Translations under genes and position numbers: made by a program
Shown: piece after piece, positions 1 through 34,100 of the stretch
Position numbering within the stretch: position 1 is the stretch's first letter
How the letters are laid out: each line of letters opens with the position of its first letter
Assembly: GCA_008632985.1 (NCBI GenBank)
Contig: QPGO01000083.1
Location: forward strand, 62,001 to 98,013
Reading direction: 5' to 3'
Source: Psammoneis japonica
Taxonomy: Eukaryota
DNA length: 36,013 nucleotides
The notes under the pieces: generated by a model
What the model was told of the DNA's origin: nothing
Databases searched by the model: none
Seen by the model: the letters and a program-made list of their open reading frames with translations, nothing else

Positions 1-157
1 GGAGTAGACAAACATTTGCCTCATTGACCGACGACACTGTTGCATCTATCTGGGGCAAAAATTACTAGACTATGGGAACAGACAGATGTTATATGAATAG
101 CGTTGTGCTAACTTTGTTACTCGAGCCACATCATGGACTGAGAACGACCCACAGTTC

Positions 158-12846: not shown

Positions 12847-14227
12847 ACTGGGCTGTTTCTGAAAACATGCGATCATGCCCGATGCCGTGCGAACCAAGCA
12901 CCTGCCTTGCCCGAACCTTTTGCTGTCTTGCTTTGTGTGTGTGCATGTGGCGTGCATTCAGTCTCTGTGCTGCAACATGACATGAGTGCAATCAATGAGG
13001 CAGGTTTTGATGCATTTTGTTGAATCGGCCATCATTTGGTGAAACCGCCGGCACCGGGGACAAAAGGTTGACCCGCATCATGGCCAGACGACCTCTGACT
13101 TTCCCGCAGCTTCACAGAGTGAAAACACAGTCACAATGACATCTGGCTCATGGCTCATGATCACTTCTGTGAGTTAGCCAGGGTGGGGCCGGTTGGTCAC
13201 ACACGTTTGGGTTCGATCCAACCATGCAACCAGCCACACCCTGCAGGAAAAGCTGTTGGGGGATTGGTGGCGCGCGAGCAGAAGCAACAAAGCAAAAACA
13301 TGGCATGGTCAAAATGTTGTGAAGCACACAACAACAAGCAATGAGAAGAAACCCAACTTGACCCAGGAAAAGCACATAAATGTTATCCAATGGCTTTGTC
13401 ATTATCTGGAAATACCCGCTCGTAGAGCCGTGAACGGTGTTCGCGTTGTTCGCTATGGTGTGTTGGGCGTTTTGGTTTTCGTGTTGTTTGCCGATAGTTC
13501 ATCTGTTTTCGTGATAGTAGATGTTTTACTGTATACAATCTTAATATATTTTGAGAAGCGCTTCGCGACGACTCTGTTCGGACCGTTAAATGGAAATTTT
13601 TTTATACAGATTCCAGACTTTTTTCGGGGTGTTCTCAGACTTTTGAATAGAAAATTTTTATGTTATGTAAAAGCTTCAGAGAACAACATAAATTAATCTT
13701 CCCTGTAGACCGCGTAGATTTTGCACGGACGAAAATCCACAATCCACCGCATGTCAACTCACTCAGTAGTAATTCTACGTATATTCTACTTACACCTCAC
13801 ACACGCACGCGCGCACACTGAATAACCTCTTATGTAGTATTTATTGATCATAAGTCATTCATAGTCATAAAGAAAACACGTTCGTTAAACAATTCTTCCT
13901 TAAATAGTTGCATTATTTAACGTGGAAAAGTATTTATAAGTCGCGTTTTGCTTTGTATGTTGCACCGTACTGTAGATAGTAGAGATTCTACTTGCAGTAG
14001 TAGTACTATACTCTACAGTAGCTAGTAGTAGCTAGCAGTAGACTAATCTCACAAAACACAGAAAAAGAGCAATCCAAAGCAAATACGAAAAGAAAGTTTT
14101 AGTCGAAATAAAGCGACGATAACACAGGCACAGGCTTGTCCCCATTTGCCACGCCTAACGTGCTTTTCTGTTGAAAAAAGAACGATCAAAATCACTGCTT
14201 TTGATGCAATTTGAAACCGGAATAATC

Positions 14228-16868
14228 ATGCGGCGTTCCTTTGGAGTCGTGTTCTTCTTGACCGCTCTGGTGTGTTCCAGCTTGCGGGACTTGATTGGCG
14301 TTCACCATACGAGCTTCTTGTGTCTTGCCGAGGAGGAACGAAAAGAATTACATTCCGAGCGCAGGCCTGCTGGGTTGTTGAGAACCAGATCCAACCGTTT
14401 AGAAGATCTTCAACCTCTGGCGAAGAGGAACTTGGCAGTAGCAAGGGAAAAGAAGATTGAGAGGTGCTTTACCTGGTGTACCAAGAACAAACCGAGTGGT
14501 GAAAAGAGAAGTAACTGTGAAAACAGATGCCAAAATAAGTTCGATGTAAACGTTGATGAATCAGGAAGCGTTGATGAATCAGGAAGCGTTGATGAATCAG
14601 GATCCGATCCGTTCATCGTAGAGCGTCGACCGTTCAGTGCATCAGACGCCAAGGGATACGAGAGCTGCAATGCTCTAAGAACTGATATCATAAATGCTTT
14701 GAAATCGCTAGCGAATTCCATAATCTTTGATGGAAGGTATGATCGCTGCAATTACGGAAGATTAACCAGACGTCCAAGATTTTTCAGAAGTCAAGGTCCA
14801 GCCTCAGCCGAGGTAGAATCCACTACAAAAAGCAATGCAGAACCAGAGGATAGTTTTGAAGCGAACAACCAAGAAGCAGGTGTGGATGAGGGAGACATTG
14901 TCAAGTCCAACAGTGAAGTTGTTTGTGCTGCATATGGTGACATCCTATATCAGTGGGATGCTAAAACAGGAAAGGTGCTGACTCGTACTACCATGACCAC
15001 CATCCCTACTAGGCGTGAGCCGAGGGTAGTCTACCCGCCATACACTTCCAAGCCTCAGATCAAGGCGCTACTTCTTCACGAAAATCGATTGGTAGTGATT
15101 GTCGGTTGGTACCAGAGCTATTACCGCTACGGTTTCATAGACCCAAGGATTCTAGGAGGACGAGAGAAGCTGCAGCTGCGTGTTTATGACATGTCTGAAA
15201 CAAAACCAAACGTTGTTGACAAGACCGGTGTTCCGGAGATGAAATTGCTCGCACACCAAGACTTGCAAGGGCGATACATTGCCTCCCGGTCCATCTCGGC
15301 AATTGGACACATAGTTACAATGTCCAACTTGAACTGGTTTCAACATTACTCTCAGCATCTTCAAAGATGTGCAGAAGATTATCAAGGAATGGACACAGAG
15401 ACGTACCGAAGAGCTGCAAAGGCAAAAGCGAATGCCCTCATCCCCACCGTCATCAAACGACTTGCAGAAGAGTTAGGTTTCGGTGGAAACTGCCGCAACT
15501 TTGCAAAAATATCGTCTTTGACGACCGGTAGCACTACAGAGGACAAGGTACCCGGCTTTTACCACAACATTGATATACTGACAACTCTGACCAAACTCAC
15601 AAGCTTCGATATAGATGAACACTTTGATGACAACAGAATCACTCTTTCGTCGATGAATGCTTTTCTCCCGACGAGCTCGGTGGATGTGTACGTATCACAA
15701 AATGTCCTCGTCGTGGCTGGACGAGGCTGGAGGCAGTGGTTCAACGACTGGCGCAACTGGAAAGAACGCACTTACCTATTTGTATTTGAATTGCAAGACG
15801 ATGGAAGTGCTGCGAAGGGAGTGGGTGGTGCGGAGGTTGCCGGATATGTTCTGAATCAGTTCTCCATGGATTTCTATGACGGTTATCTGCGGGTGGCTAC
15901 CACGAACAGTGCTCAATGGAGCTGTCTCCCACCAACCACTCGTACCGAAACAACTCTCCCCTGCCGGTGGATGACCATCAGCGACTCTTCAAGTCAAATA
16001 TCCATTCTTGACTTCAACAAGCCATCAGGAGATTCAAAGAACTTTGGCAAACGCGTTGGGTTTGCGGAGGGTCTTGGAAAGGGAGAACGGATATATGCCG
16101 TCAGGTTCTTCGACGACAAGGCATTTGTCGTGACTTTTCGCCAGGTTGATCCACTATACGCAGTAGATTTGAAAGATCCTACCAACCCTGAAGTCAAGGG
16201 CGAGTTGAAGATAACGGGTTTCTCCAACTATCTGCACCCCGTCGACGACAACATGCTCATCGGAATTGGACAGGATGCGGATGCAGCCACGGGTCGCACC
16301 AACGGTGAGCAATTATTCCTGGATCCATCAAACCTTCAAGGTTAAAAGAGATCCAAGCGACTAGTAAATTTTCTGATTCGAAACTGAAATTATTTTGGTT
16401 CATTTTACAGGTTTTCTAGTGAGCTTGTTCAATGTTTCTGATCTGACTGCTCCGAGTTTGGTGCAACGATACAAAGTGGATGCTCCTTATTCGTACAGTG
16501 ATGCACAGAGGAACCATCTTGCCTTTCGCTACCTACAGAGGTCAAAGATTCTTATTGTCCCTCTTCAAATCTACCTCTATGGACATCGATACAACTATGA
16601 CGGCTTTAGCTTGTACCGCGTCGACGTCGATGGCATCGAGCCTCTTTTCAACATATCGCACGTTGAACCTAGCCGCATCATTAGCTGGCGGACATACTGC
16701 TGGTACAACGCACGCATCCCCGCAAGGAGTTTGGTTCACAAGGGGCAACTGACGACAATGAAGAGTCACACTGTTCAAATCCATGACCTTGCCACTCAAA
16801 AACATGTAGCAAGTATCAACTTGGATGACGGATTACCTATCAAGGACTGTTATGGCTATTGGGGATAG
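14228..16868 (+). CDS. Secreted beta-propeller domain protein (PF09826 Beta_propel/COG4880-like), copy A; exons 14228-16304 and 16411-16868
   Basis: Signal peptide. Motifs NNQEAGVDEGDIVKS, LNQFSMDFYDGYLRVATT and GERIYAVRF...VVTFRQVDPL...GELKITGFSNYLHP. Removing the 106-bp intron GTGAGC...TTACAG restores colinearity with copy B. Confidence 0.92.
14551..14604 (+). repeat. 18-bp in-frame repeat x3 (VDESGS)
   Basis: CGTTGATGAATCAGGAAG repeated three times (the third ends GATC). Copy B has a single ADESGS. Confidence 0.9.
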
Positions 16869-17244
16869 CTGGTTCTTCATGAATCTATAAGGAAGCGAAG
16901 ACGAGGGTGCATATGATTTACATGTGATGGAAGCAATACACAAATGCATGGTTTATTGGAGGATTTGTTTCGTGTTGATTTTGTATCAAGGAGCGAAGGC
17001 TTTCACATATTTCCAAGTCACAGAAAAATGCGGTAATAGCAAGCGAAGGGAAAAGCCAACACAAAGAAAGAAACGCATTGGTAGTAGAATAGCACATGAG
17101 CAAACCAAGGATATTTTAGAGAAGAAATTGCACAGGACTAAAAATGAATACTAGAGGTTGCAACTGGCTTGATGGGATCCTCCACGACACTCTCTAGAGT
17201 AGAGAGTGGAGGTGTGCATCATGCTTTGATCTTCTGCAGGCTGT

Positions 17245-17900
17245 GCTCGAGGCTTCTCGGCTCCAACCGCACGTAGCTTTCTCGCGCTTGACATGTTGTG
17301 AATCGCGCGTCATCAAACGGCAATGTTTGGCGTCTGCAAGAAGGGTGAATTCTGTGCCCAGCCATTGGCAAAAATGATGGAGTCTTCTGTGGGCTGCGAA
17401 CATGCAAGCTGAGCTCCGAAAATGTCACTGCCTTGCCCCACTCAATGAAACAATAAAAATGCCCAAGTTTCCTCCTGATGCACTCAGCACTCACCATGGA
17501 AAAGGCCAGGATGCAAAATCCAGCTGTTTTGATTGGCTGTTGACTGTGTGTGGTCCACAAGGCACCACACGTTGTCACATCCAGTGGATGTTGCCTCTTC
17601 TTCTTCTTTGCCACCGACAATTTCTGTTGCATGGACAGTGCAGCCACGAGAAAGCAATCACATGCACAACCAATGTTGTGCTTTTGCGGTTCTCTCTTGC
17701 TCACTGCATCCAAACAAATGTCTTGCATGGTCTCTTGTTGTGAAAGCTGTTTTCTGCACCAGCAACCAAGTTGTGGAGCACTTCATCTTTTGCATTAAAG
17801 CCAGTTTTCAGCATCATGAGCAGTGCCACCCCAACAACATCTTTGGTCAAGCTCCCACAAAGCCCAGCTTCATGGGCAACTTCAGCATGCTGCTCTGGTT
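17245..17900 (-). pseudogene. Decayed unknown ORF, paralogous to 33075-34100
   Basis: Shares TCAAACGGCAATGTTTGGCGTCT, CTGCCTTGCCCCACT and CAATAAAAATGCCC with 33140-33345. Peptide GHFYCFIEWGKA...RRQTLPFDDA. Confidence 0.45.
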
Positions 17901-18327
17901 GAACTTGAGTGAGGACATGCTGCTCCCAACATCAGCAGCAAACAACTCTTGAATGGAGCTTCTGACCATGCACTCACGCACCTGTCCAACCCTGCAGAAA
18001 CTTGGCTGTCAAGAGTGAACAGTCTCTAGAAAGTTTGCAAGTGGTGGGCCAATGTCAATGGCACAACTCTCACCGGAGCTTTGTTTGATTCCAAGCATTT
18101 GCGGCATCAAAGAAAATTGCAGCAGTGAACACAACAACTGCCTCAACCTCCTGACCAACAACAAAGACAGAGATGGCACACCTCATGCAAAGAGGAAGAT
18201 GACAGCCAATCTCCCTCTCACAGAAAAAAAACACTGGGCTGCCTCAATTGGCACTCAACATTGGACCCAGCAATGCAACAAACCCCTTTGACAGGGATTG
18301 CCCATGCCACAACAGGGTGGCGGGGCT

Positions 18328-18593
18328 TGACAGAAATTGAAAAAGAGTCAGATGGAAGGAAAACAACAGCCCTTGCTGCTGTCTAAACAGCAGATGTGTG
18401 CCTCCATGCAGAGGCCATTGCAGCGGCCAAGAGACATGTGTTGTGATGTTGGTGCTGCTGTTGTTGTTTTTGTGAGTCATGTGGCTTGTTGTGCAACAAT
18501 GCGTGGAGCCAGGAGCACAGATGTCTGTGTGTGACAAACCAATGTAGCACATGACAAATGCCACACAACTGAAACCCTGTTCAAATCCTGTCA
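18328..18593 (-). repeat. LTR of outer Copia
   Basis: Homologous to 20268-20513 and 24305-24550, with TG...CA ends. Confidence 0.85.
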
Positions 18594-20267
18594 CTCCTCA
18601 TTTTGCTTGAGGAAGCCACAGAAATGGATTCAAAGTTGGATTGGCTGAGAGCCTTGGGATCAAAGTTCCAAAACATGAGAGGATGGAGCAGGTTCCACAT
18701 TTGGGAACAACCTCAGTGTTTGCTGAGAATGTCAGCAGGGTGTTGTAAGAGCCTTCAATGAAATGAAATTTGAGGCAACCATCAGAGGCAATTGCCTCAT
18801 GAGTGTGGTGGCAGAACAAGAGGGTTGTGTGTCGTTTGTGCATCTTGGAGTGCAGGATGGTGGCACTGTCTGCAACTGACTTTTGGTCCCCAAACATGTG
18901 ACAAGTGCAGTGGATCACAATGATGGGGCAATGCAGCATGCAGCACAGTGCTGGCAATCTGCTCCATGCAAGGCCTTGCAGCAGCAAATTTGGACCTGCA
19001 AATTGCAGTTTTGATGACAACATGCTGCCATCAAGATCATGGGAAAAGTTGCAGCCAATGCAATGCTTGATTGGTCCGGTGCTCTTGAGTTTCAACTTGT
19101 GCTTCTCAGCAAGAGCATCAATGACGGCTTGAGAACCCTTCATGGCAAAGGCCAAGTCATCCACATGCACAGCCATGCATTCACAGCAATCTCCATTCCT
19201 GCTGCATGTCCAGATGTTGGGCTCACCATGGCACTGGAAGAAGAAGCCTCTTTGCACTCAAACAATTGGCAAAGTGTTTGTGCCACCTGAGGCCAGAGCT
19301 GTGGAGGCCATGCAGAGCCTTGTGGATGACAACAATGTGACCTTCCAATTTCCCAAATTGAGAACCCACAACAATGCACCGCTTCTCCTTGGTCATGGCT
19401 TTGAGGTGCACATTGCCAATGTCAGCAGCCCAGGTCTCCAACTTGTTGAGTTTGGCCCAAAAAATTGTCAATCCAAGGCTGCAGAGGAACACTGCTCCAG
19501 AGCAGACACTGTCAACTGGGACACATTGGTGAGGTGGCTGTCAGCAGTTGGTCATGCTTTGTGCAGGCTGTCATGTTTCACATCATGCACAAGGTGCACC
19601 TTGATCTTCTTGTGACCTGCAGGAGCACTTAAATCCTTGCAGTGTTCACAGCAATGGAAGATGGTGTGCTCATCAAGATGGGTCATCTCAAGGTCTGTTT
19701 TGTCTCCCCATTTGCAGTTGCCACTGTGTTTGTCAAGGGCCATGGTGTGCTTGCAGTGTGCCCACACTTGCAGCATGACACAGTGCAGAAGGAGCAGAGC
19801 TTGGCCTGGTTAGCCATGCAAAATGGCTTCTTCTGTCATCTTGCAATGGCACAAAAATGTCCCCATCTTTTGGCATCAAGAAGGCCATTCTCACGTGTGT
19901 GAATGGCACAAGTGATGGGGTTGTCCTTGGCAATGATGGCAAGGGGTTTGAATGTGATTTCCTCCTCTCTCGAATGGAGCATGATGTTGTGGCTCAAGCC
20001 TTTCCAAGAGGGGTCATGAGGTCTCAGCAGTTCTTTGTGTGTGGCATGATGTGGCACAACTTCCAGATGGTGGTGATGTCATCATCTTCTTGCTCAATGT
20101 GAAGAACAACATGGTTGCAGGGGCCAGGACTTGCTCACATTCATCATTGTTGATCATGGAGCAAACAAACTTGGTGAGTTCCAGGTTGTCACCAATTTCC
20201 CAACTGTGGTTCTCAATGTTTTTGACAATGTGGCTCTGCAGTGCTGTCCACCACCCTCCTGTGGCTG

Positions 20268-23200
20268 TGGCAGAAATTGAAGATGACTGGGTGGAAGAAA
20301 ACAACAACTCCTTGCTGCTGTCTAAACAGCAGATGAGTCTCCATGCAGAGACCATCACAGGAGCCAAAAGACTGGTGTCGTTGACATCGGTGCTGCTGTC
20401 ATTGTTCTTGTGAGCTGAGTGGCTCAAAAGCAAACTGCATCACGTGACACACATGGAACTAAGAGCACACACAATTGTGTGTGACAAACTAAAATCTTGT
20501 TCAAATCCTGTCACTCCCCAGTTTGCTTGAGGGGTCAACAGCAACAGATTCAAGGTCAGATTGGTTGAAAGCCTCGGGATCGAAGTTCCAAAACATCAGA
20601 GGACAAAAGAGGCTCCAGACTTGAGAGCAACCCCAGTGCTTGTTGAGAATGTCAGCTGGGTTGCGGGAGCCTTCGATGAAATGAAACTCGGGGAAACCGG
20701 AGGCAATTGCCTCACGCACATGATGGAACAAGAGGGTGGTGTGTTGCTTGTGTAACATGGAGTGCGGGATGGCAGCACTGTCCACAACCAACTTGTTGTC
20801 CCCAAACATGTGACATGTTTCACAAATGGGGATGCCAAGGCAACGCAAAGTGATGTGAAGATTGTCAATGGGTGCCTCTGTGAGGTGTCCATCAGCAACA
20901 AGAGTTGCGTCTTGTGCCATCCGTCATGTTTGACGTTGCAGATGAGATGCACCCTGATCTTCTTGTGTCCTGAGTCCTTGCAGTGTCCACAGTTGTAGAG
21001 AACCTTGCACTCACCCAGCTGAGTCATCTCAAGGTCTGTTGCGTCTCCCCTTTTGTGGTTGCCATTGCGCTGATCAAGGGCCAAGGCATGCTTGCAGTCC
21101 CGGGGCACTTCACACCCGTGCTTGCATCGTGGCACAGCACAAAAGGAGTGCAACTTGGCTTGCTGATTGGCCATGCAGAATGGCTTCTTCTGGTGCAGAG
21201 CTGCAGCCCGGAAGCATTTCCAGCCATTGGTCTTGAGCAAACCGTGTTCGCGTGCATGAATGGCACAGGTGACGGGATCGTCCTTGGCAATGATGGCAAG
21301 GGGTTCAGACGTGATCTCCCCATTCTCCCATTCAAGCATGACGTTGTAGCTTGAGCCTTTCCAAGAGGGATCATGAGGTTGCAATGGTCCTTCATGCAAT
21401 GCGATGTGTTGGAACTTCCAGAGGGTGGTGTCCTCATCTTCTTGCTTGATGTGGTGCATGATGTCATTGCAGGCTGGGACTTCCTCTCATTCATCATTGT
21501 TGACAGAGCAAATGAACTTGACTGGTTTGGGGTTGTCTTCAATTTTCCAGTCATGGTCCTCAACAACGGCTTTGATGGTGCAAGCTCTGTGGCTTTGTTG
21601 GTCCTCTTGCGGCTTCATGAGGAAGGTGCGTCCAATGATGTCCTCGGGGTCAAAGACCGGCATTTTGGGCATCCTGATTGCATCCCCATCTGGTGAATCC
21701 AGTGAATCCGCGGAGTCATGTTGGGAGTTGATGATGGGTTCAGCTGATTTCTTGTCAGGAGGGTCAAGATGCAGGTTTGGGGTGGACGGATCACGGGCAG
21801 AACATACGTTGGAGCAACAGAGAATCTTCTGGGTGTCATCAGAGAGGATCTTGAATGTCATCTGATGACCGACATGTTCAGCAATGCCAACAAAGTGACC
21901 ACGCAACTCGCAGGATTTGGACAGCCAGTCAGAATTGTCGAGGTGGCAACACGCAGGTTCCCACCATTCAAAGCGCAGGAGCGAGCTGATGTTGGGCAAG
22001 AGAAGATGCTGTAGATTGCCAGGCGGCAGAGGCTTGCACTCTGTGACATTTGCCAGGATGAGGTTGTTGTCCCTTTTGTTGTGTGCATCAGTGGGTGGTG
22101 CAGTGGTTGAGGCAAGATCATGAGTGTTGGCATGCAAATTGACATCGCCATCACTTCCAAGATGGAGGTTGTGGAGGCTGACAGCTTCCAACTTGTGGCA
22201 GTTGCCGGAACAAGGGGTGCGCAATCCAAGGATGGCGGCCTTGGTGGACTGCGGCAGGCTGTCCCAAATGCACTGGTGGTCTGGCAAAATGCGGCACCAC
22301 TGTTCCTGGGTGAGAGAAGAACTGTGGGTTTGAGCAGCACAAGCCTGAATGATGTCAATGTCACTGTCAATGTTGAAGAACACATCATCATCAGGGTTGT
22401 CCGGAGCCAGGTCATGTGCGCAGATGGCACAGCATGGGGCGCGTGGAGCCTTCTTGGGAATGAACGTGCTGTCACACTTTGCCACTGCTGAAAGTGGGAG
22501 CCCACAGCACTGTTTGTGTGAGAGGCCTCTGCCATTCTGCGTGCAAAACTGATCAGCTTGGTTCTTTGTTGAACGAAGTTCTTCCACAGGATGAATGGTG
22601 TTCTCAAGCATGATGTGTTTCTGGCCAGCAGAGAAGTGGTCTGCACTTGGAATGAGAGCTTCAAACTTGCAAAGCTGGTCCTGCCAGTGAAGTGTGAAGG
22701 CACAGGTGGATCCTTTCCAGGTGCCATCACCAAGGCGAGCAGTGGCAAGATGTGTGAGAAGAGTCGAGGACTCCATGGATGTGCAAGCAGATGCAAGGGC
22801 GCACTTGGACTCATGACACACTGCTTGAGCATCAGAGGAGCCAACATGTTCACAAACAAGTGCCTTGCCTTTGTCATTCTGCAAGATGCATTCAAATGCG
22901 GCGAACATGTGCTTCTGTTGTTCATTGAACAGGGCCTTGTCCTCAGCTGCAGAGGGCTTGTACGTTGGGTCGAGAATGCAGTCGATGTCCTGGGAGCGGG
23001 CCTGTGCGATGACAGAGGTGTGCCACGTGTGCCACTGTTTGTCGGACTTGAGAGTCGTGAAGGTGAGGGGTCATGTTTGATGCCTCATTTAAAGTCACGC
23101 ATGGGGTCACATGGTTTTGGGGGCATTGAGCCAGGAGTGGGAGCAGATGGTGCTGCACCCATGGAGAGGGATGCTGCGTGCTTGGGACTGAGATGACAGT

Positions 23201-24550
23201 CAGTGAACTCCTCATGTGTGAACAAGTTGGGGTTGTTGCCAACATCAGCACCACCGCACGCTTTTGCCATGTGCAGACTAGTCAATGCAGCCATCTGTGC
23301 TTTGCATCCATGTGGCAAGGGCATTTGGTTTGTGCCGTTGTTGCAAACCAGGGCATCCAGTTGTGTCGGAGTAAAAGTGAAGAGATTCTGGTGCAAGTCA
23401 GTGCTGTCAATGTTGAGGGTGGAGCGCAATGGACTGTCTGTGGCTTGATTCAGAACAGTGCCTAAAATTTGTTGCTGCCTGGCGAGAATCATGGTGCAAC
23501 CGTGTGGGTGTCAGGACTGACCAGAGTCGGAGGGTGAGCTTGAAATGACTTGAAACTTGACTTGAAGTCTTGGACCATCTCATGAGTCAGAAGCCACCAG
23601 GCTGTGATGTCCCATTCACAGTCAAATGCCAAGCTTCCTGTCCGGTCCGCAGAGTTGTGCCGGCAAGTCCGAACCTGCAGCTGGCGATGCTTTGGGTTGC
23701 CTGAGAGCAGAGCAATGGGTTAAAAACCCCTGCTGACAAGCCAGTCAGAGGTGGACAAGACCTCCAAACCGTTCTCATTTTACATTGGTTGGATGACCTG
23801 ATCAGGCTGGCCAAATTTGGCACTGTGGAGGGATGAACAAATGTGGGAAATGTGCACCCTCGCCCCAACGCAGGCTGTGATCACGAACTGCTTCCTCCCA
23901 CAGTTGTCCTCATGGACCTTGTAGAACTGCAGAAGACCAGCAATCCGGTGCAGATACGAGGCAGTGGACTTGGCGTGCGTGGAGCAGGGCCAGAGTCAGA
24001 CGATTGTGCAGTGTGCACGTGAACGCATTGGTCTGTCTGCCAATCAGGGTAGAATCCACTGCAGGGAATCCAGAATCTCAGATGTCTGAGAGTTTGGGAA
24101 TTCCTGACCAAACAAATGTCGTCCGTTGAACAAAAGTGTCCAACGACGGCAGGCATTGGATGAATCCAAACGTGTGGGTTCAATCCAATGTCCAGCAGTG
24201 AAGAAGGCAGGTGTGTGCTTCCACCACCAATGTTGCACGTCGTCGAAATTTTCCGATGACGATGATGAATGCTCAATGGATGAAAATGAGCGAGACTGTT
24301 GATCTGACAGAAATTGAAGATGACTGGGTGGAAGAAAACAATGACTCTTTGCTGCCATCTAAATGGCAGGTGAGTCTCTGTGCAGAGACCGTTGCAGCAG
24401 CTGAAAGACTGGTGTCATTGATGTTGGTGCTGCTGTTGTCATTCTTGTGAGCCAAGTGGCTTGAAAGCAAACCACATCACGCAACGCATGCGGAAATGAG
24501 AGCACACACAATCATGTGTGACAAACTGAAATCTTGTTCAAATCCTGTCA
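20268..24550 (-). mobile_element. Nested, internally deleted CoDi-type Ty1/Copia element
   Basis: 246-bp LTRs at 20268-20513 and 24305-24550. TSD GGCTG at 20263-20267 and 24551-24555. PPT AAACTGGGGAG. Gag DFK*GIKHD...DKGKALV; pol FEWWEP, FVGIAEHVGH, LEWENGEITSEPL, VKHDGWHK, FGDNKLVV, HHVREAIA. Protease, integrase core and most of RT are not seen. Confidence 0.92.
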
Positions 24551-24626
24551 GGCTGCACAAGGAAAGCGCACCCGACAATGTCCTTGGGATCAAAGACTGG
24601 CATCTCAGGCATCCCAGCAAATCAGC

Positions 24627-24690
24627 AAAATCCTGCTCAAATTCTGTCACTCTTGATTTTGCTTGAGGAAGCCACTGAAACATGTTCGAA
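24627..24690 (-). repeat. Fragment of a further PPT/LTR junction of the same Copia family
   Basis: CTCAAATTCTGTCACTCTTGATTTTGCTTGAGGAAGCCAC matches 18580-18620. Confidence 0.7.
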
Positions 24691-26267
24691 GTCAGAAGAA
24701 AGACAATGATTCTGCTGTCCAGTTCCTGGCACACAAGGTGGAGTTGCCAAATCTGAGGAATTGTGGCAAGCTCCTGTCCACACCTGTTCTCCTTTTCCTG
24801 TCATCTTCCCACTGGCATTTTGAGCCAAGACTGCCACTGGATCTGGCCACACACCTGCTTGATGCCCTCCCAGAAGCCCCAAGATGGCAGGGCATGATTG
24901 TCTTGTTGAAGGTCTCTCAGTGAAGTTGGAGCTGGACGAGTGCTGGGAGTGGGGGTCAACACAAATGCTGCTCCTTCTGCCAACACCAACAAAGCCATCA
25001 AAGTCAGAGCCAAGATGCCATCTGTCTGTGCTTCTTGATGGCCAATGCACTCCAGCAGCTGTGCACATGTGTGAGTGTGTGCTGCACAAAAAACAGACAA
25101 TTCTCTTCAATTTTTGCTCAGTCACCAACTTGCCACATGATTGCTTCATTGAGTGGCATTAAAGAACAGTGTCTTCCCTTGCACATTTGCCAATGTTTTG
25201 TCACACTTGCAAAAACCGCTGCAGCACACAAAAACGAGTGGCTGCTTTTCATTTCCCGGCGTTTTCATTGTGTGCTGGTTGCATTGCTGCACAATGGTTC
25301 ATTGACTTTGGGAGCAATGTTCTGTTTGTGCTTGTGAGCAAATGAGTTGTCAAAACACAACAAGTGAGTTTGAGGTGCATCTGCAATGTTGCAAATCAAA
25401 CAGTTTTTCTTTTGGCTGGCACAAAGAGCAATTTTGAACCATTGACAAAAGTTGCACAGTTCACAGGCATGCCACATGTGAAACTTTGCATGGAGTGACA
25501 CACTTTTTTGTGCAAGTCACCACAGCGGTGTGCAGTTGTTGTTTTCAATGGGTTTTCTTGATTTTGTGACTGCAGCAGTGGCACCAAATGACAAGCATGT
25601 GGAGCAAACACAACATGTTTCATGAAGAAAATGTGGTGAGTTGTGGTGTTTTTCATGCCCAAAACAGACATGTTGCATTCACAGGATTTTGCATGTTTTT
25701 CATGCACCACAGAAAGCCAGGGCACAAGGTCCCTGAAACAGATCTGTGTGGCACAGAAATGACCACACAGAGTTGAAAGCATTGACCAAGAAGAGGGTGC
25801 AAAAATTTTGCACTTAAAAGTTGGTTGCTGAAATCTCTGCAAGTTTGCAGCTGCTGCACTGAACAAGAGAGAAATGGGGCTTGCAAACAAAACAAAATTT
25901 TGTTGCTCTGATGGCATTGTGTTTTGTTCTCATGAAGCGGAAAGCAGCCAATGCTTTGTGCCGCCAATTTGCTGTTGTGCTGCAGGTGTGCTGTTTGTTG
26001 CTTGTGTTGGGAGTTTGCTTCTCACCAATCATTTGGCAAAATTCCATCATTGGATGATGTCTGCTGCATGGGCTCTCAACAAAGTGTTGGTCAAAAATCT
26101 GAAAACAGAGCTTTGAAGCATTTGTGAATGGAATCATGTTGCTCAGACAAACACTGTCATGTGGAGTGTCAATGGTTTCAGGGGAAAAGCATTCCTTGAG
26201 TCTGAGGCATCAGCCAAGCAGAGAAGCACAGCAGAAGCACAAGAAAAACATCGGCCCAAACCCTTTT

Positions 26268-26288
26268 TGTGTGTGTGTGTGTGTGTGT
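26268..26288. repeat. (TG)10 microsatellite
   Basis: Direct reading; flanked by T runs. Confidence 0.9.
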
Positions 26289-26799
26289 TTTTTTTTCAAC
26301 AAAAGAAGTCCATGTGATTTTGGACCAGTGCACATGGCTGTTGTTGGGAACAGGAAAAATTGGCAGCAAAGACAATGGAGCATCATGAGACCAAATTTGC
26401 CAGAAGACATTGCTTGTGGTGTCAACCACAGCTGGAGGAGATGCTGACAGAGAAAGATCAGGGAGAGACTCCAGGGGACACAGAGTCTGCTGCATTGTGA
26501 GAGGGAGCACATCAAACAAGCCAGTGTTCAACCTGATGTGCAAAAACTCTTCAGACTCCCAATGATGTGCATGAAAGGACATGCACATCTGTGGCAAGAC
26601 TCTGCCCACTGACCCAGTGGAAGCTGCAGTTCAGAGGTGTCATCTTCACAAAACAAGGAACACAATGCTCAACGCCATTTCCAAGCACTGTTGCAGATGG
26701 AAGTGCTTGCTTGACTGGGCTCAGAGAAGATGTGCTCCTGAGGAGAGCGTGCTGGCCATCCAGCTTGAATCTGTCCACAGAATGACCATTGGGCAGAGC

Positions 26800-29700
26800 A
26801 GCATCAGACATGGCAAGAGCTCAGAGATGCAGACAGCAACAGCTCACCCAGCGCACTTTGCGATCTGAAAACAGGCCAGAATCTGGTGACACACATTGTT
26901 GAAATTGATGTGTGCAGTTGTGCAAACAAGAAAGGAGCAAAGAGAAATGAACCATCAAGACTCATGAGGCAACTTGTTTGAGTGCACATCATCAAGAAAA
27001 CTGATGCCAGTGCCCAGATGAAATTGAGTCCAAACGACCATGATCTGGGACAAAACTTGAGGTTGGCCTGCACCATGCCAATGTCAAAGGAACTACAGAA
27101 CTTGAGCAATGCACTGCTCAACATCCAAAGATTGGAGGCCTCTGCCTCCCGGAGCACAGGAGCTGCATGGGGCATCTCTCTCAGTGTTGGCTTGCAGTTG
27201 TGGCTGCACTTGGCATGAATCACACTCACTGCTTTCTGCCAAGTCTCCAATGCAAAAGCTCCTTTTTTGAGAAATGGGTGTTTGGAAAAACACATGCAGC
27301 TGGCAACAAACTGCAGGCAAGATGGCAAGTTCACACCTTGTGTTTTGTTGATCTAAAGGGCACAACTGGAGGAACAAATTGAGTTTTCTGAGTGCCCGCT
27401 GGGAGCTTGTGATGACCGAGTCTCTTGTGTGAAGAGCACACTGGCAGTTGTGTGCTGGAGCACTTGGTGGGGTGATCTGTTGAGCACACTTTAATGTTGA
27501 GCTCTTTGTCATGCAGATGGAGGTGGGGCTTGCCATCATCAGAGAACATCCACTCAATGGAGTGAAAGGAGCAACACTTGGGCAACTCAAGCTCATGATG
27601 TGCAACATTGAGAAGGTTGCACCAGAGTTGATTGTCCTCCTTCCCTTTTAGAGAAAGGACTCCCTTGGATTGGTTTTTTTTTTTGCACTGGAGTTGCACA
27701 TCACCTGGCACTGGCAGAACATGTCAACTCAGCAAAATCCGAGATCCCAGTTTCAAGTGCTCTACAAATGAATCCTGGTGTGACTTTGTGTGCATGTTGG
27801 ATTGCTCTATTGCTGAGTGAGTTCTTTCTAGACAAGATCTGCAGTGGGGTGAATCTCATCACTTTGGAGCTGCAAAATGTGATGATCCAAAGCACTGTTG
27901 CATGACCCAATTTTGCTGTCTCCAGCTCTCACTGCAGTTTGCAAATGGAGAGCACTGACAGACACAGAGAAGCAAGGAAAAAGAACAAGCAAAGCTGAGC
28001 AAATGTTCTGTGATTGACCAGTTGCTCATGTGATCCAGAAAACACAAGACAAGGCCAGCTGCGTCCAGAGCCACAGCACTGTTTAAATCTGGCATGTTGC
28101 AGATGATGAGCTTTGCCTTGTGCTGGACGATGTTCAGCCCAGTTGTTGTGTCATCTCCTTGGCAATGTGTGGCATGTTGTGTGAGAGTCAAGGCCTGTTG
28201 AGCAGCACCAAAACAGTGTTCAATGTGCCCACCAGTTGGTTTGCAGGGGGCATGGAATGAGCCTGCGGACAGCACCATGTGGGGACAACCTGCCATGCCA
28301 CCAATTGTCTGCTGCATGAGTTTTCATTTGTGTGCTTGTGCATGGAACAACAGGTTGTCAAAGCAAAACACCTGCAATGGCAAAACAATGTGCCTTGGCC
28401 AATGTCTTGCAAGATCAAGCAAATGAAAGATGCGAGTCAGGATGTTGTCACTCTGCCATGGTTCCACATTTCCACCCAAGAAATGCTCAGCCTCACACTC
28501 AGTTTTTTGTGCAATGACAGTGCACAGTCCAACCTTTTGGACATCATGCAGCTCAATTTTCCCAAAGTTTTGGTTGCACGGTGTGGCAAACATGGCAAAT
28601 TCACCCAAATCAACAGCGTCCCCATGCATGACAACATCTGCTCTGCACTGATGTGGGAGTCTCCTGTTTTAGCATCTGGGTTGGTGGGCTTGAGTGTGGA
28701 GCGGCTGTGCTTTTGTGTCAGTCTCCAAGAACCTCTGTCTCTCTGCTCTGGCAGTTTGCTTGAGATGGCTTGTGAAATCAACCTTGGCAGCAGCACAAAA
28801 AGACACCAATCTTGGAAGCCATTGCTTTTGGAAATGAAGTGCAAGTGGTGGCTGTGGGCACACCACATCTCAGAGTGCCTGCACACGATGGTTTCCTTTT
28901 GCCATTCTTCAAGTCAGCACAAATGGCAAAGATCTTGTTCACAATGTCCCCAAAGACAAGTCATCCCATGGCTTGCCCCAGCGACTCTGCTGGACACTTG
29001 CACCCCCTCCTCCCACCATCATTGTGTTGTCACTGCACTTCTCATTTTGCACTTGTTGTTGATTGTCAGACGGAGAAAATGTGATGGCTGTGCAACCATG
29101 TGCCCACTGGTGGCACAAACGAGGGACAATGGAGGGGGAAGAGCAAATGCGAGCATGTTTTGTGTGCAAAAATTGACAAGTGATTTGCAGTTTGCAGCGT
29201 GCCTCAAGAAAACATTCATCGTTTGTTCACGCCTCACATTCTGCATGTGTGAAAAACAAGAACAAGTGTCTGGGGCCAAACAGAAAGTGGGAAAGGCAGT
29301 GAATGTTGAAAAGTTGGGCAGTGCCAACTTGACAAAGGAAGAGCAAGAAGAAGTCCCAGACTTTGGCACCAATGCTTTCAAGTTTTGTCAAGCACCTGCT
29401 GAAAACCCTGCTGCGTCCAGCGGTGCCTTTTCTTCTCTTGTTGGCAAGCAAGGGCTTTTTGGGCACTTTTTCAATCACCCAAGCTGGGAGAGATCATGCA
29501 AAATTCATCTGAGACATGGTGACTGCAGCAATTTTGGCTTAAAGATGCTCAACTGAATGAACAGCAGAGTTCTCAGAACTTTGTGGCTGAGGTTGCAAAA
29601 GCCATCGTCTGTGCCCTGGAGCTGCCCCCCTGTGGAAGATTTGTGGCACTGCTGTTCTGCTGCTTGGCACTGTTTTGTGGTGCCATCACATCTCTGAACA

Positions 29701-29960
29701 TTGCAGCATCTTTCATCCTGCCATGTTGTGCCACTGCAATGGGTTTGTGTGCAACACCTGCGAGCCTCACAAGCAGCTCACAGAGGGCCGGGCTTCTTCA
29801 GTGTCACCGAGGTTACCCAACAGGAGCAATGTCCTTTCTCAGCTCTGCTTGCAATTCTCCAAAATGTCAAGCTGTCTCAAGCTGGATCTTGCAATTTGCA
29901 AGCCCTGGTTTTGTGTCATTATTTGAAAACAATGCTGAGAGCACCCTGACGGTCATTGGT
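26800..29960 (-). pseudogene. Heavily hypermutated, unidentified coding remnant
   Basis: Colinear minus-strand protein-like fragments (MTVRVLSALF..., DAVDLGEFAMFATP..., QQTIGGMAG..., ELELPKCCSFHSIEW) separated mostly by TGA stops and frameshifts. No family recognised. Confidence 0.3.
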
Positions 29961-30197
29961 TGTCACACGACATATAACGACTCGACGACTCGTTCGTTCT
30001 TTCAATCAAGTGGCTTCGCATTTCTCACCCAGCGGCGTACGAGCACAGTGCTACATTACCGTACGTAGGCGTTGCTACTGTAGCACGTACCTGCAGCAAT
30101 CTCACATAACACACAACAAATAACAAAACAAAATAATCCCACCAAACGAAAAGAAGGTAATCAAAGTAAAGACAATACTTGTAACACAGACGCAATC

Positions 30198-32666
30198 ATG
30201 CGGCGTTCCTTTGGTGTCGTATTCTTGTTGAGTGCTATGGCATGTTCCGGCTTGCGGGACTTGCTTGGCGTTCACCATGCCAGCTGCTGGTGTCTTGCCG
30301 AGGAGGAGCGAAAAGAATATCATCCCAAGCGGGGGCTTGCTGGGTTGTTGAGAACCAGATCCAATGGTTTACAAGATCTTCAGCCTCTGGCGAAGAGGAA
30401 TTTGGCACTATCAAGGGAAGAGAAGATTGAGAGGTGCTTTGCCTGGTGTACCAAGAACAAACCGAGCGGTGAAAAGAGAGAGAAATGCGAAAACGGATGC
30501 CAAAATAAGTTTGATGTAAACGCTGACGAATCAGGATCCAATCCGTTTATCGTAAAGCGTCGACCATTCAGTGCATCAGATGCCAAGGGGTACAAGAGCT
30601 GCAATGCCCTAAGAACGGATATCACAAATGCTTTGAAATCGCTAGCGAATTCCATAATCTTTGATGAAAGGAATGATTATTACAATCTCAGACCAAAAAC
30701 AAGCATTACAACGGCCCTGCCGGACGTTACTGCAGCAAGCAATGCAGAACCAGAGGATAGTTTTGAAACGAACAACCAAGAAGCAGGTGTGGACGAGGGA
30801 GACATTGTCAAGTCCAATAGCGAAGTTGTTTGTGCTGCGTATGGTGACATCCTATATCAATGGGATGCTACAACAGGAAAGGTGCTGACTCGTACTACCA
30901 TGACCACCACCATCCCTACTAGGCGTGAGCTGAGCGTCATCTACCCGCCACACACTTCCAAGCCTCAGATCAAGGCGCTACTTCTTCACGAGAATCGATT
31001 GGTTGTGATTGTCGGTTGGTACCAGAGCTATTACCGCATAGACCCAAGGATTCTAGGAGGACAAGAGAAGCTACAGCTTCGTGTTTATGACATTTCTGAA
31101 ATGAACCCAGGCGTTGTTGACAAGAGTGGTGTTCCAGAGATGAAGTTGCTCGCACTTCAGGACATGCAAGGGCGATACATTGCTTCCCGGTCCATCTCGG
31201 CTATTGGACACATTGTTACAATGTCCAATTTGAATTGGCATCAACATTACTCGCAGTATCTTCAGAGATATGCAGAAGATTATCAAGGAATGGACACAGA
31301 GACGTACCGAAGAGCTGCAAAGGCCAAAGCGAATGCCCTCATCCCCACTGTCATCAAACGACTTGAAGAAGAGTTAGGTTTCGCTGGAAACTGCCGCAAC
31401 TTCGCGAAGATATCGTCCTTGACGACAGGCAGCACTACCGAGGACAAGGTACCGGGATTTTACCACAACACTGAGATACTGACAACTTTGACCAAAATCA
31501 CAAGCTTCGATATAAATGAAGACTTTGATGACAACAAAATCACTCTTTCGTCAATGAATGCTTTTCTCCCGACGCACTCGGTCGATGTGTACGTATCACA
31601 AGATGTCCTCGTCGTTGCCGGACGAGGCTGGAGGCAGTGGTTCAACGACTGGCGCAACTGGAAAGAACGCACTTACCTATTTGTATTTGAATTGCAAGAC
31701 GATGGAAGTGCTGCGAAGGGAGTGGGTGGTGCGGAGGTTGCCGGATATGTTCTGAATCAGTTCTCCATGGATTTCTATGACGGTTATTTGCGGGTGGCTA
31801 CCACGAACAGTGCTCAATGGAGCTGTCTCCCACCAACCACTCGTGACGAATCAACTCGAACCTGCACGTGGCAGATCATCAGCGACTCTTCAAGTCAGAT
31901 ATCCATCCTTGACTTCAACAAGCCATCAGGAGATGATTCAAATAGTTTTGGTGAACTCGTTGGGTTTGCGGAGGGTCTTGGTAAGGGAGAACGGATATAT
32001 GCCGTCAGATTCTTTGACGACAAGGCCTTTGTCGTGACCTTTCGCCAGATTGATCCACTATACGCAGTAGATTTGAAAGATCCTACCAACCCTGAAGTCA
32101 AGGGCGAGTTGAAGATAACGGGTTTCTCCAACTATCTGCATCCCGTCGATGACGACAAGCTCATCGGAATCGGACAAGATGCGGATGAAGACACCGGTCG
32201 TACCACTGGTTTTCTCGTGAGTTTGTTCAACGTTTCTGATCTGACTGCTCCGAGTTTGGTGCAGCGATACAAAGTGGATGCTCCTTATTCGTACAGCGAT
32301 GCACAGGGGAACCATCTTGCCTTCCGCTACCTACAGAGGTCAAAGGTTCTTATTGTCCCTCTTCAAATCTACCTCTATGGTCATCGACACAACTATGACG
32401 GCTTCAGCTTGTACCGCGTTGACGTCGATGGCATCGAGCCTCTTTTCAACATATCGCACGTTGAACCTAGCCGCATCATTAGCTGGCGGACATACTGCTG
32501 GTACAACGCACGCATCCCCGCAAGGAGTTTGGTTCACAAGGGGCAACTGACGACAATGAAGAGCCACACTGTTCAAATCTACGATCTTGCCACTCAAAAA
32601 CATTTAGCAAGCATCAACTTGGATGACGGGTTACCTCACGAGAACTGTTATGGCTATTGGGGATAG
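30198..32666 (+). CDS. Secreted beta-propeller domain protein (PF09826/COG4880-like), copy B, intronless
   Basis: 822-aa ORF colinear with and highly similar to spliced copy A, with the same motifs. Confidence 0.95.
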   Translation: MRRSFGVVFLLSAMACSGLRDLLGVHHASCWCLAEEERKEYHPKRGLAGLLRTRSNGLQDLQPLAKRNLALSREEKIERCFAWCTKNKPSGEKREKCENGCQNKFDVNADESGSNPFIVKRRPFSASDAKGYKSCNALRTDITNALKSLANSIIFDERNDYYNLRPKTSITTALPDVTAASNAEPEDSFETNNQEAGVDEGDIVKSNSEVVCAAYGDILYQWDATTGKVLTRTTMTTTIPTRRELSVIYPPHTSKPQIKALLLHENRLVVIVGWYQSYYRIDPRILGGQEKLQLRVYDISEMNPGVVDKSGVPEMKLLALQDMQGRYIASRSISAIGHIVTMSNLNWHQHYSQYLQRYAEDYQGMDTETYRRAAKAKANALIPTVIKRLEEELGFAGNCRNFAKISSLTTGSTTEDKVPGFYHNTEILTTLTKITSFDINEDFDDNKITLSSMNAFLPTHSVDVYVSQDVLVVAGRGWRQWFNDWRNWKERTYLFVFELQDDGSAAKGVGGAEVAGYVLNQFSMDFYDGYLRVATTNSAQWSCLPPTTRDESTRTCTWQIISDSSSQISILDFNKPSGDDSNSFGELVGFAEGLGKGERIYAVRFFDDKAFVVTFRQIDPLYAVDLKDPTNPEVKGELKITGFSNYLHPVDDDKLIGIGQDADEDTGRTTGFLVSLFNVSDLTAPSLVQRYKVDAPYSYSDAQGNHLAFRYLQRSKVLIVPLQIYLYGHRHNYDGFSLYRVDVDGIEPLFNISHVEPSRIISWRTYCWYNARIPARSLVHKGQLTTMKSHTVQIYDLATQKHLASINLDDGLPHENCYGYWG

Positions 32667-32799
32667 CTGGTTCTACATGAATCTATACTGGAAGGAGGCA
32701 AAGAGGAGGGTGCATATGATTTACATGTGATGGAAGCAATACACATACGTATATTTTATTAGAGTTTTTCTTTCAAGTTGATTGCATCATGGAGCGATA

Positions 32800-33055
32800 T
32801 CTATGGCCATTGATACAACTATGATGGCTTTAGCCTGTACCGCGTTGACGTCGATGACATCGAGCCTCTTCTCACAACATATCGCACGTTGAACCTAGCC
32901 GCATCATTTTAGCTGGCGGAGCTACTGCTGGTACAATGCTCGCATCCCTTCAAGGCGTTTGGTTTCACAAGGGGTAACTGACAACAAAATGAAGAGCCAC
33001 ACTGTTCAGATCCACGACCTTGCCACTCAAAAACATGTAGCCAGCATCAACTTGG
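32800..33055 (+). pseudogene. Partial third copy of the 3' end of the beta-propeller gene
   Basis: CTATGGCCATTGATACAACTATGATGG...CATCAACTTGG matches ~32375-32622 with several small insertions and a CGA>TGA change. Confidence 0.9.
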
Positions 33056-33074
33056 TGTAGGCTCTCTGGGGACA

Positions 33075-34100
33075 GCTCCGAGGCTTCCCGGCTCCAACCA
33101 CGTAGCTTTCACGCACTTGATAGTGTGAATCTCAGCGTCGTCAAACGGCAATGTTTGGCGTCTACCGCTCAGGTTGTCGACCCAAGTTGCAAGGGCTCCC
33201 GTTCACAAGACGGGTGGATACCGAGACACCAGACATTTGCAACTGGGAGAAGAATGATGGAGCCTTCTGCGCGGTTCGAGTATGCAAGCTGAAAGTCCGA
33301 AATGGCGCTGCCTTGCCCCACTAAATAGCACAATAAAAATGCCCTAGCTTCATCCTGATACAGCCAGCACTCGCAGGGTGCAAGCTCCGGCTGTTTCAAA
33401 TTGGCGCCGTGCATTGATGTTTGCTTCTTCTTCTTCGTCACTAATCATTTCTGATGTAAAACAACAGGATGGGACATTTCTTACAGTAGCACAGGCTTCA
33501 TTGCTTGATTGGAGGCACTGACAAGACCGCCACGGGGGGCTAGACCGCAGGTCGGCCCTTCGCACACATTATGGTAGAATTCCTTTCAGAGCTTTCGCCA
33601 TAGTTTGGAGAAAGAATTGAATGTGTCTTGTTTTGCCGAGAGTAGAAAGGCAAAGGTGTCATCATTATAGCTCGCGAGATTATGGTTGAAGGTTTCTCCC
33701 CACTTGGTCAAGGATTGCATGTAACCCATCTCTTGGACGAATCAGCTCCGGCTCTTGTCTCTTGTGTCGTTGTTTCCTACTTGTACCAGTAGGCACTTGG
33801 TAAGCTGCAGCGACTTGTCTAGATCAACCGTAGTTTGCGATGGATCCTTCTCTACACGTGTCCCTTTCGATGCATAATAGTCGCGAGCACTGTCTCGAAG
33901 ACTGTCCAAGCCAACTCGTATCCACTTGGAGCTACGAATGGGACTATTGGCAATGATCAAAGCCATCGTATCAACGTCGTCAGACGAAGTCGACAGCAAG
34001 GGACTGATGAAATGGTGTGCACGTCGCATTCATCGGTACAGTAGTTTCTTCTTCTTCCTGAAAAGTCGCCCTGCAAGATTCCAATATATTTCGCATCGTA
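33075..34100 (-). pseudogene. Decayed unknown ORF (TpA-intact paralog of 17245-17900)
   Basis: Long minus-strand frame with scattered stops (…MALIIANSPIRSSKW…MGYMQSLTKWGETF…) and nucleotide homology to 17245-17620. Confidence 0.45.

Follow-up and report, generated by a model that had tools for sequence, protein, structure and literature searches.

A regional signature of TpA loss to TpG and CpA in transposon relics of the diatom Psammoneis japonica

The DNA considered here is a stretch of 36,013 nucleotides from Psammoneis japonica (assembly GCA_008632985.1, contig QPGO01000083.1, positions 62,001 to 98,013 of the forward strand), called the window below. It holds three tracts in which the dinucleotide TpA has been erased almost wholly or in part, and the two larger ones carry relics of transposons. 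The host is a diatom; the open reading frame (ORF) at 158-2008 on the minus strand carries the diatom pyrenoid shell domain PF25192. The features of the window are as follows, with dinucleotide abundance given as the ratio of observed to expected counts (O/E), base composition serving as the expectation.

17201-29972: tract 2, the main TpA-erased tract, 12.8 kb; 42 TA against 830 expected, O/E 0.05
7760-13376: tract 1, a second TpA-erased tract; 31 TA against 336 expected, O/E 0.09
34115-36013: tract 3, partially depleted and continuing past the end of the window; 28 TA against 118 expected, O/E 0.24
18324-20258, minus strand: Ty1/copia relic, copy A, from the reverse transcriptase (RT) to the C-terminus, with a terminal repeat at 18324-18636; located by tblastn of the copia protein P0001
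20259-24695, minus strand: Ty1/copia relic, copy B, with an internal deletion and repeats resembling long terminal repeats (LTR-like) at about 20259-20560 and at 24296-24695
24696-29972: TpA-erased DNA without assigned origin, at single-copy read depth; TA O/E 0.04, CG O/E 0.14
11742-12735, plus strand, in tract 1: relic of a PIF/Harbinger-like DDE transposase, with frameshifts and in-frame TGA stops
14159-16345, plus strand: host gene, Beta_propel paralogue 1 (PF09826, E 1.5e-80), an unaffected control; TA O/E of the flank 0.68
30084-32666, plus strand: host gene, Beta_propel paralogue 2 (PF09826, E 6.9e-104), unaffected; TA O/E of the flank 0.63
158-2008, minus strand: host gene for the diatom pyrenoid shell protein (PF25192, E 6.7e-50)
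3051-4952, plus strand: sulfatase (PF00884), an ordinary host gene

Within 17400-29960, where the initial annotation had claimed a near-erasure of TpA, TA occurs 41 times against 819 expected (O/E 0.05) and the flanks are normal, so the claim stands; the accompanying hand count of two TA in 24362-27093, at 25160 and 25815, is exact, with no others. Two features go beyond that account: CpG is depleted as well (174/748, O/E 0.23), and the same signature recurs in tract 1 and, more weakly, in tract 3. TG and CA are in excess (1523/839, O/E 1.82, and 1354/731, O/E 1.85), and the summed deficit of TA and CG approximately equals the summed surplus of TG and CA. Every remaining dinucleotide lies between 0.84 and 1.22, AA being at 1.22 here and in tract 2, and AT, AA and TT show no depletion. 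The GC content is about 0.49, near the flank value. Biased gene conversion was considered and dropped because AT, AA and TT are unaffected and the GC content of 0.49 is close to that of the flanks. The corresponding O/E values for CG, TG and CA are 0.25, 1.81 and 1.85 in tract 2, 0.57, 1.60 and 1.52 in tract 1, and 0.69, 1.56 and 1.45 in tract 3. In the flanks (1-7350, 13377-17200 and 29973-34114) TA lies at 0.63-0.68, CG at 0.90-0.95, TG at 1.12-1.18 and CA at 1.16-1.26. In sliding 1-kb windows TpA O/E stays at 0.00-0.10 over about 17.5-29.5 kb and at 0.48-0.84 in the adjoining genes. The edges of tract 2, placed from TA positions at 17201 and 29972, switch within about 100 bases at either end; TA is dense again from 29973, and the ORF of Beta_propel paralogue 2 starts about 110 bases past the end of the tract.

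The elements in 18324-24695 belong to Ty1/copia by homology to polyproteins bearing RVT_2. In copy A, residues 1200-1912 of P0001 align to 20229-18644 (tblastn), the terminal repeat is covered by the repeat families D2, D4 and D6-D9, and TA and CG O/E are 0.04 and 0.07. In copy B, residues 16-543, 1051-1452 and 1813-1924 align collinearly to 23483-20528 (tblastn), and its ORF at 20599-21486 on the minus strand matches copia polyproteins of about 1900 residues annotated with RVT_2 (PF07727; E 3.8e-65, 58% identity); TA and CG O/E are 0.07 and 0.41. The short terminal repeats recur at 18324-18636, 20259-20560 and 24296-24695, and the LTR-like pair 20259-20513 and 24296-24550 is 82% identical. 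No copia match was found in the window outside 18.5-23.5 kb. Word depth in the public sequencing run X1 is 1000-95000 over the copia part, as for a highly repeated family, and about 67-90 over 24696-29972, which is represented by exact contigs. At a likeness of at least 85%, 24939-30075 has single-copy word depth, a level at which further-diverged copies would go unseen. The six read-through frames of 17200-30100 gave no Pfam family at E <= 0.01, and none of the 148 ORFs of the three tracts exceeded a curated Pfam cut-off, with weak scattered matches only (E 0.01-0.1). For the copia relic ORFs, the missing Pfam scores are attributed to the mutation load. Long ORFs occur in several frames and on both strands, for example at 28261-29553, 21490-23070 and 21861-23084. 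Such false ORFs arise because TAA and TAG are gone and TGA is the sole stop codon left. The 431-residue ORF at 28261-29553 had no homologue in a word-based search and no ESM atlas match.

In tract 1, the initial annotation had guessed at a transposase, and homology searches bear this out. An exhaustive phmmer search with the plus-strand ORF at 11610-12197 returned 1666 matches (best E 4.9e-33), and its longer matches P0218, P0254 and P0264 carry DDE_Tnp_4 (PF13359), the first two above the Pfam curated cut-off and the third just under it (23.8 versus 24.8 bits). Their tblastn alignments cover 11742-12735. The relic's own ORFs had no Pfam match, and a word-based search of the read-through 12373-12843 gave no homologue. 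At its GLRYEV, DDGY/DKGY and LKTY motifs, Tyr has given way to Cys, Cys and His respectively, and one arginine has become a TGA stop. At the left end of the same tract, 7760-9000 is a GC-rich block (GC 0.59; TA O/E 0.12, CpG O/E 0.84) and is either a TpA-only hit or a GC-rich gene. Its overlapping long ORFs (7434-8402, 7724-8857 and 7829-8752, minus strand) gave no family; for 7724-8857 the best ESM atlas score of 0.76 was not usable, and a PDB sequence search returned nothing. Tract 1 also contains a perfect 138-base tandem duplication (9469-9606 and 9605-9742, 100% identity) that either arose after the mutation or reflects the assembly. In tract 3, the ORF at 34062-35360 had no Pfam family and nothing in a PDB sequence search.

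The direction of change can be read from conserved protein positions. A column was taken as conserved where at least 80% of at least 15 copia homologues agree, and the window codon was read at each. Only 2 of 33 tyrosine columns keep Tyr; 15 now read Cys (TGY) and 10 His (CAY). Since no Tyr codon lacks TA, these columns show that TA was ancestral and disappeared through transitions. Among 45 arginine columns 9 are kept, and 28 now read CAY, TGY, CAR, TGA or TGG. Other conserved residues persist (His 27/29, Lys 35/38, Ile 20/21, Trp 20/23). The four motifs in which the initial annotation had read tyrosine as histidine or cysteine are present as described: HVDD at 19156-19167 and KALHGL at 19304-19321 on the minus strand, GLRCEV at 12339-12356 and DDGC at 12487-12498 on the plus strand. 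All four align with Tyr in intact homologues. Only the first two lie in 17400-29960, where all had been placed; GLRCEV and DDGC belong to tract 1.

When the 224 changed conserved columns were sorted by the single change that explains each, TA>TG accounted for 18, TA>CA for 15, CG>CA for 46 and CG>TG for 20. Outside these contexts there were 2 columns of A>G, 3 of T>C, 8 of C>T and 10 of G>A; one transversion was needed in 49 columns and two or more changes in 53. Thus 33 of the 38 inferred A>G or T>C single changes fall at TpA, an enrichment whose lack had been named beforehand as a reason to abandon the reading. Together with the outcomes at Tyr codons, this indicates that TpA was lost by transitions to TpG or CpA. 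Other types of change were not rare in the target, given 66 CpG transitions and 102 of 224 columns with a transversion or multiple changes; C>T or G>A outside CpG makes up 18 of the 122 single-transition columns. These extra types are best read as added CpG decay and age, because the environmental loci L046 and L065, described below, show TpA loss alone.

The flanking bases of TpA that survive in 7760-13376 and 17275-29972 (n = 72) are biased: 38 are YTAR, 31 mixed and 3 RTAY, against 94, 387 and 220 among 701 TpA in the flanks (chi-square 77.8; Y, pyrimidine; R, purine). TTAA is 7.5-fold over-represented among the survivors. A liking of the mutator for certain flanks may lie behind this bias. 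Within the window, the classes of product fit a mutator that favours a pyrimidine following the hit A, and L046 runs in the opposite direction.

Comparison of copies within the window places the changes in time. Between copia copies the commonest dinucleotide difference is CA versus TG (15, 29, 15 and 7 in four alignments); in both control alignments of the gene paralogues it is not among the twelve commonest. In the LTR-like pair, CA/TG differences occur at 15 of 64 aligned YR dinucleotides, and other sites differ at 8/127. In the two paralogue controls, CA/TG differences number 3 and 0, and 59 and 25 shared TA are kept. Doubling the 15 gives about 30 ancestral palindromic YR sites in 255 bases, much as in intact copia loci, where TA+CG density is about 119 per kb. 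Each copy was therefore hit on its own, once the copies had separated, at essentially all of these sites. The depletion is even across copy A, copy B, the single-copy DNA without assigned origin and the junctions between them, which indicates that the process acted on the chromosomal region and not on the elements before insertion.

The initial annotation also held the process to be strand-symmetric, and this agrees with the outcomes. Cys:His counts are 15:10 (window), 7:10 (L046) and 7:5 (L065), 29:25 when summed, and TG and CA outcomes show no runs but are randomly interleaved in tract 2 (runs test z = -0.21; heterogeneity over 300-base bins, chi-square 41 on 41 df). Because of this balance and interleaving, the tracts reflect many single-site hits on either strand, not one processive single-strand burst. 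The suggestion that the process is aimed at transposon chromatin holds for location, since depletion is confined to transposon-bearing tracts; that chromatin itself directs it is a conjecture.

TpA loss and CpG loss come apart in relatives outside the window. The scan of metagenomes, for which 24 intact polyproteins were aligned, gave 78 loci with the best scores among 210 relatives. This selection under-samples degenerate copies, and the one to three TpA-depleted loci among the 78 are a lower bound. In 77 of the 78, TA O/E is 0.31-1.02, and in L046 it is 0.02 along the entire 2.8 kb. At the codon level, four loci read as follows:

L046: Tyr kept 1/24, now His 10, Cys 7 and Phe 6; Arg kept 31/33; TpA loss only
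L065: Tyr kept 10/23, now Cys 7 and His 5; Arg kept 34/37; partial TpA loss only
L006: Tyr kept 28/29; Arg kept 27/47; CpG loss only
L062, control: Tyr kept 22/22; Arg kept 28/28; neither loss

L046 and L065 have at most 78% DNA identity to any other fetched locus, and the single match of L046 to the window spans 106 bases at 82%. At 6 of its 24 conserved Tyr positions L046 now has Phe (TTY), a change that may reflect variation between lineages or a substitution for Tyr driven by TpA-directed pressure. L006, L077, L005, L003, L001 and L056 have CpG O/E of 0.05-0.24 with ordinary TpA (0.50-0.70), and CpG-only decay is thus common in this copia family. P0113, a predicted copia ORF of 559 residues on an 84.6 kb contig of another public assembly, contains 0.2% Tyr and keeps 1/11 conserved Tyr and 6/20 conserved Arg columns; it has no precomputed Pfam domain. 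It bears the same double signature as the window, of which it may or may not be independent. P0121 had no usable ESM atlas match. A metagenome scan with the window's own mutated ORF found no relative, and a viral_contigs scan with alignment A2 gave no match.

According to the initial annotation, intact copies equally free of TA and with His or Cys at the motifs would speak against hypermutation; intact relatives instead keep Tyr and have normal TA content. The dependence on methylated DNA that it had suggested is not supported: TpA loss occurs without CpG or Arg-codon loss in L046 and L065, and possibly in 7760-9000. Deamination of 5-methylcytosine cannot remove TpA, as it had premised. Decay of methylated transposons at CpG does account for the CpG to TpG/CpA half of the signature (Arg kept 9/45 in the window, with L006 alike), but copy B is TpA-saturated while its CpG O/E is still 0.41. 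CpG retention in the two adjacent copia copies differs six-fold (0.07 versus 0.41), and both are TpA-saturated (0.04 and 0.07). TpA loss is thus a distinct process that does not depend on CpG loss and appears to reach saturation sooner.

In fungi, RIP (repeat-induced point mutation) is likewise a mutator confined to transitions in a specific context; it destroys transposons where they stand, and the dinucleotide scar that it leaves shows sharp regional contrast. It acts before meiosis and depends on a DNMT-like enzyme. RIP converts CpA to TpA and so creates TpA (PMC2621366), whereas TpA is erased in the window tracts. RIP also needs repeats, whereas 24696-29972 appears to be single-copy as far as copies of at least 85% likeness are concerned. 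As the initial annotation had argued, RIP cannot explain the tracts; C>T at CpA is not the change found, and TpA is lost rather than created. DNMT4 enzymes akin to the RIP machinery of fungi occur in some diatoms, as one of two diatom papers notes (10.1101/2025.10.24.684338 or PMC9998398), and these are a lead for the CpG half only.

The closest known system is that of Bigelowiella natans. The accessible text of a preprint (Mettrop et al., bioRxiv 10.64898/2026.01.13.699255) describes TpA-only A>G/T>C hypermutation of integrated viral DNA. In mutation-accumulation lines two viral regions mutate about 1000 times faster than the remainder of the genome, and A>G or T>C at TpA makes up 230 of the 231 mutations found there; coding sequences low in TpA are enriched for RT and DDE Pfam families. 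Its authors propose an ADAT2-like DNA adenine deaminase, without proof, an idea shared with the TadA/ADAT-like candidate of the initial annotation. In both systems TpA changes only to TpG or CpA, the action is regional and aimed at foreign or selfish DNA, and the long-term trace is low TpA with high CpA and TpG. The window shows this trace (TA 0.05, TG 1.81 and CA 1.85 in tract 2) and a sharp restriction to selfish DNA, with copia and Harbinger-like relics between normal genes, although 24696-29972 and 7760-9000 have no assigned origin. The systems differ in host (rhizarian there, stramenopile here), in main targets (giant-virus and virophage insertions there) and in degree, depletion being mild there (rho TpA 0.45, viral region) and 0.05 here; de novo events were seen there and only the end state here. 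The main text of the preprint makes no mention of CpG, diatoms or flanking context. The initial annotation had presented the process as possibly undescribed, but hypermutation of the same kind is already in this preprint, and to judge from that text the kind was first described in 2026. Our literature searches found no report of TpA hypermutation in diatoms, and term look-ups in the two diatom papers (10.1101/2025.10.24.684338, PMC9998398) returned no mention of the signature. New here are the occurrence in diatoms, the place of ordinary transposons as chief target, the extent of saturation and the independence from CpG loss.

Our data are best explained by a real, regionally targeted mutator that converts TpA to TpG or CpA on chromosomal DNA, accompanied by separate CpG decay and probably acting by adenine deamination, and we give this reading as a whole a probability of roughly 0.6. 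The TA to TG or CA direction, the TpA specificity and the near-equal involvement of both strands are observed, as are the origin of the changes in place after the copies separated, the sharp edges and the separability of TpA loss from CpG loss. We are confident that the process itself is real, regional and TpA-specific. The tracts would be the near-saturated end state of a regional mutational process acting on the chromosomal double-stranded DNA of silenced transposon relics, in which either strand was hit, site by site, in many independent events, overlaid by a separate and slower CpG to TpG/CpA loss of the kind expected from cytosine methylation. Adenine at TpA might be deaminated enzymatically to hypoxanthine and then read as G, as proposed for B. 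natans. We infer an enzyme as the agent, with recruitment through chromatin state or recognition of foreign DNA. Adenine deamination is the most economical and most likely chemistry, although taken alone we give it only about even odds. The universal U33-A34 context in tRNA editing by TadA/ADAT is a possible reason for the taste for TpA.

Thymine chemistry is the alternative that survives best, though we consider it unlikely. A dioxygenase of the TET/JBP type could oxidise T at TpA in silenced DNA to 5-hydroxymethyl- or 5-formyl-uracil, which would mispair with G or be misrepaired and give T>C. TpA is its own reverse complement, and T>C and A>G on opposite strands are indistinguishable in counts. 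In dinoflagellates 5-hydroxymethyluracil preferentially replaces thymine at TpA (our literature search returned no paper on the point). A single literature search found no evidence for oxidised thymine in diatoms, and no citable paper was found, either way, on whether oxidised thymine is mutagenic enough to drive such a process. The sole study of the signature, in its available text, favours adenine deamination, itself without proof.

Editing of transposon RNA from A to I by ADAR- or ADAT-like enzymes, fixed by reverse transcription and reinsertion, is largely refuted here and is very improbable. Copia elements do pass through an RNA stage, and ADAR prefers U before the edited A, as the Discussion of the B. 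natans preprint states (10.64898/2026.01.13.699255). Such editing would pass on only sense-strand A>G, that is Tyr to Cys, yet His (25) is nearly as frequent as Cys (29) in the counts summed above. The DNA transposon relic and the single-copy DNA without assigned origin are equally depleted, the depletion is even across a composite tract with sharp outer edges, and side-by-side copies differ as CA versus TG at the same sites. ADAR hyperediting and APOBEC editing of retroelements and viruses are innate defences that work through deaminases and mark selfish nucleic acids with clusters of transitions, and in this they resemble the process proposed for the window, but they act on one strand of RNA or cDNA and produce strand-coordinated clusters, whereas the window was hit on both strands equally, without runs, and with a DNA transposon included.

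An error of sequencing or base calling, in which a modified base in transposon chromatin would be read wrongly while TA and CG in fact stand at these sites in the genome, seems to us no more credible than RNA editing. The platforms of the window assembly and of X1, and the library type of X1, are not on record, and modification of transposon DNA is common. Of the sampled words of 20500-30400, 81% are present in run X1. The contigs built from its reads alone reproduce the TA-free sequence at a word depth of about 65-70 and agree with the window without a difference over 17000-18468 and 18659-19941, with 1 difference over 24523-26256 and with 2 over 26305-30641, which is unexpected from noisy long reads. 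An error dependent on read strand should give a mixed consensus, not clean TG or CA, and other data sets also have Tyr turned into His or Cys, in L046 and in P0113. The check on amplified short reads called for in the initial annotation is thus largely answered in favour of hypermutation, in that the X1 contigs are TA-free, with platform and amplification not on record. These contigs are read-level support and not an independent replicate, because X1 may be the sample from which the window was assembled. Of 601 variant places among the contigs, 494 are transitions. A mixed, non-random sample of 40 of them includes 13 transversions, 2 sites with TG in the window and TA in the others, and 7 with TG or CA in the window and CG in the others. 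Hardly any of the stretch is covered by runs X2 and X3, from which nothing follows, and no RNA run is listed as containing it.

Error-prone repair of the polymerase eta type (WA>WG; W, A or T) recruited to the tracts, a candidate put forward in the initial annotation, does yield A>G at TA, but AA>AG should then equal TA>TG; 18 of the 20 inferred A>G changes follow T, the other 2 lie outside TpA, and AA O/E is 1.22, so this candidate is disfavoured and its chances are slimmer still. The weakest alternative, no targeted process but intrinsic TA poverty by selection or slow neutral decay under a mild genome-wide bias, could appeal to the mild under-representation of TA throughout the window (0.63-0.68 in the flanks) but is refuted by the controls, as intact relatives reach a TA O/E of 1.02 and L062 keeps all its Tyr, the RT motif with a conserved Tyr in intact homologues reads HVDD here, host paralogues 88-92% identical keep their shared TA with hardly a CA/TG difference, and the YR sites of the LTR-like pair are saturated while its other sites differ little.

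Several points weigh against a TpA-directed mutator as we have described it. Neither an enzyme nor a modified base nor a de novo event was observed, and ancestral states were taken from protein homologues 50-58% identical, not from DNA ancestors. The 102 of 224 changed columns that need a transversion or at least two changes mean that the relics are also old and generally decayed. Over most of the tracts in the window TpA and CpG losses coincide, and a single process of dual specificity could still be at work in this organism. X1, whose platform is not on record, was the sole run listed with the stretch and possibly its source sample. The flank preference of surviving TpA is not reproduced by the outcomes at Tyr codons (18:16 versus 11:9, p = 1). 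In the host-derived stretch 17248-17492, the TA were lost by transitions mixed with transversions.

That stretch lies at the left edge of tract 2 and has 2 TA against 10 in its paralogue 33079-33372, and 13 CpG against 18; TpA loss may have spread about 250 bases into host DNA here. The pair was tried as a DNA-level ancestor and dropped for its few sites and mixed change types. At 17335-17420, on the same boundary, X1 and X2 contigs carry 136 other letters in place of 84 bases, either an alternative allele or a paralogue. The Beta_propel gene and its downstream flank form a tandem duplication (14224-16996 and 30194-32797, 88-92% identical) with tract 2 between the copies; the paralogue 1 gene is 87.6% identical to 30194-32205. 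A sub-repeat of 250 bases occurs in three copies, at 16576-16824, 32374-32622 and 32800-33055.

For annotation, our study indicates that such tracts lose Pfam-detectable domains and yield long false ORFs, which biases transposon annotation and gene calling; gene callers will output false proteins that are rich in Cys and His and free of Tyr. For biology, a TpA-erasing mutator mirrors the RIP of fungi, and in the literature searched it is represented by one preprint of 2026 on one alga. A saturated signature in a diatom, on relics of retrotransposons and of a DNA transposon alike, broadens the phenomenon: ordinary transposons join integrated viruses as targets, Stramenopiles join Rhizaria as hosts, and the TpA-only stages in environmental contigs show it to be separable from cytosine methylation. 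Diatoms include transformable species, and the acting enzyme, the attacked base and the mode of recruitment are therefore testable by comparative genomics and knock-outs. We suggest, tentatively and with less than even confidence, that the SAR supergroup (Rhizaria, Stramenopiles) shares a defence by TpA-directed DNA editing that does not depend on cytosine methylation and silences transposons and integrated viruses by erasing TpA. Tyr codons may be destroyed by this defence, with the diatom tracts as its saturated end state and the environmental copia contigs as intermediate stages. Because there are lineages with TpA-only loss, CpG-only loss, both or neither, phylogenetic profiling could lead to the enzyme, which could then be tested in transformable diatoms.

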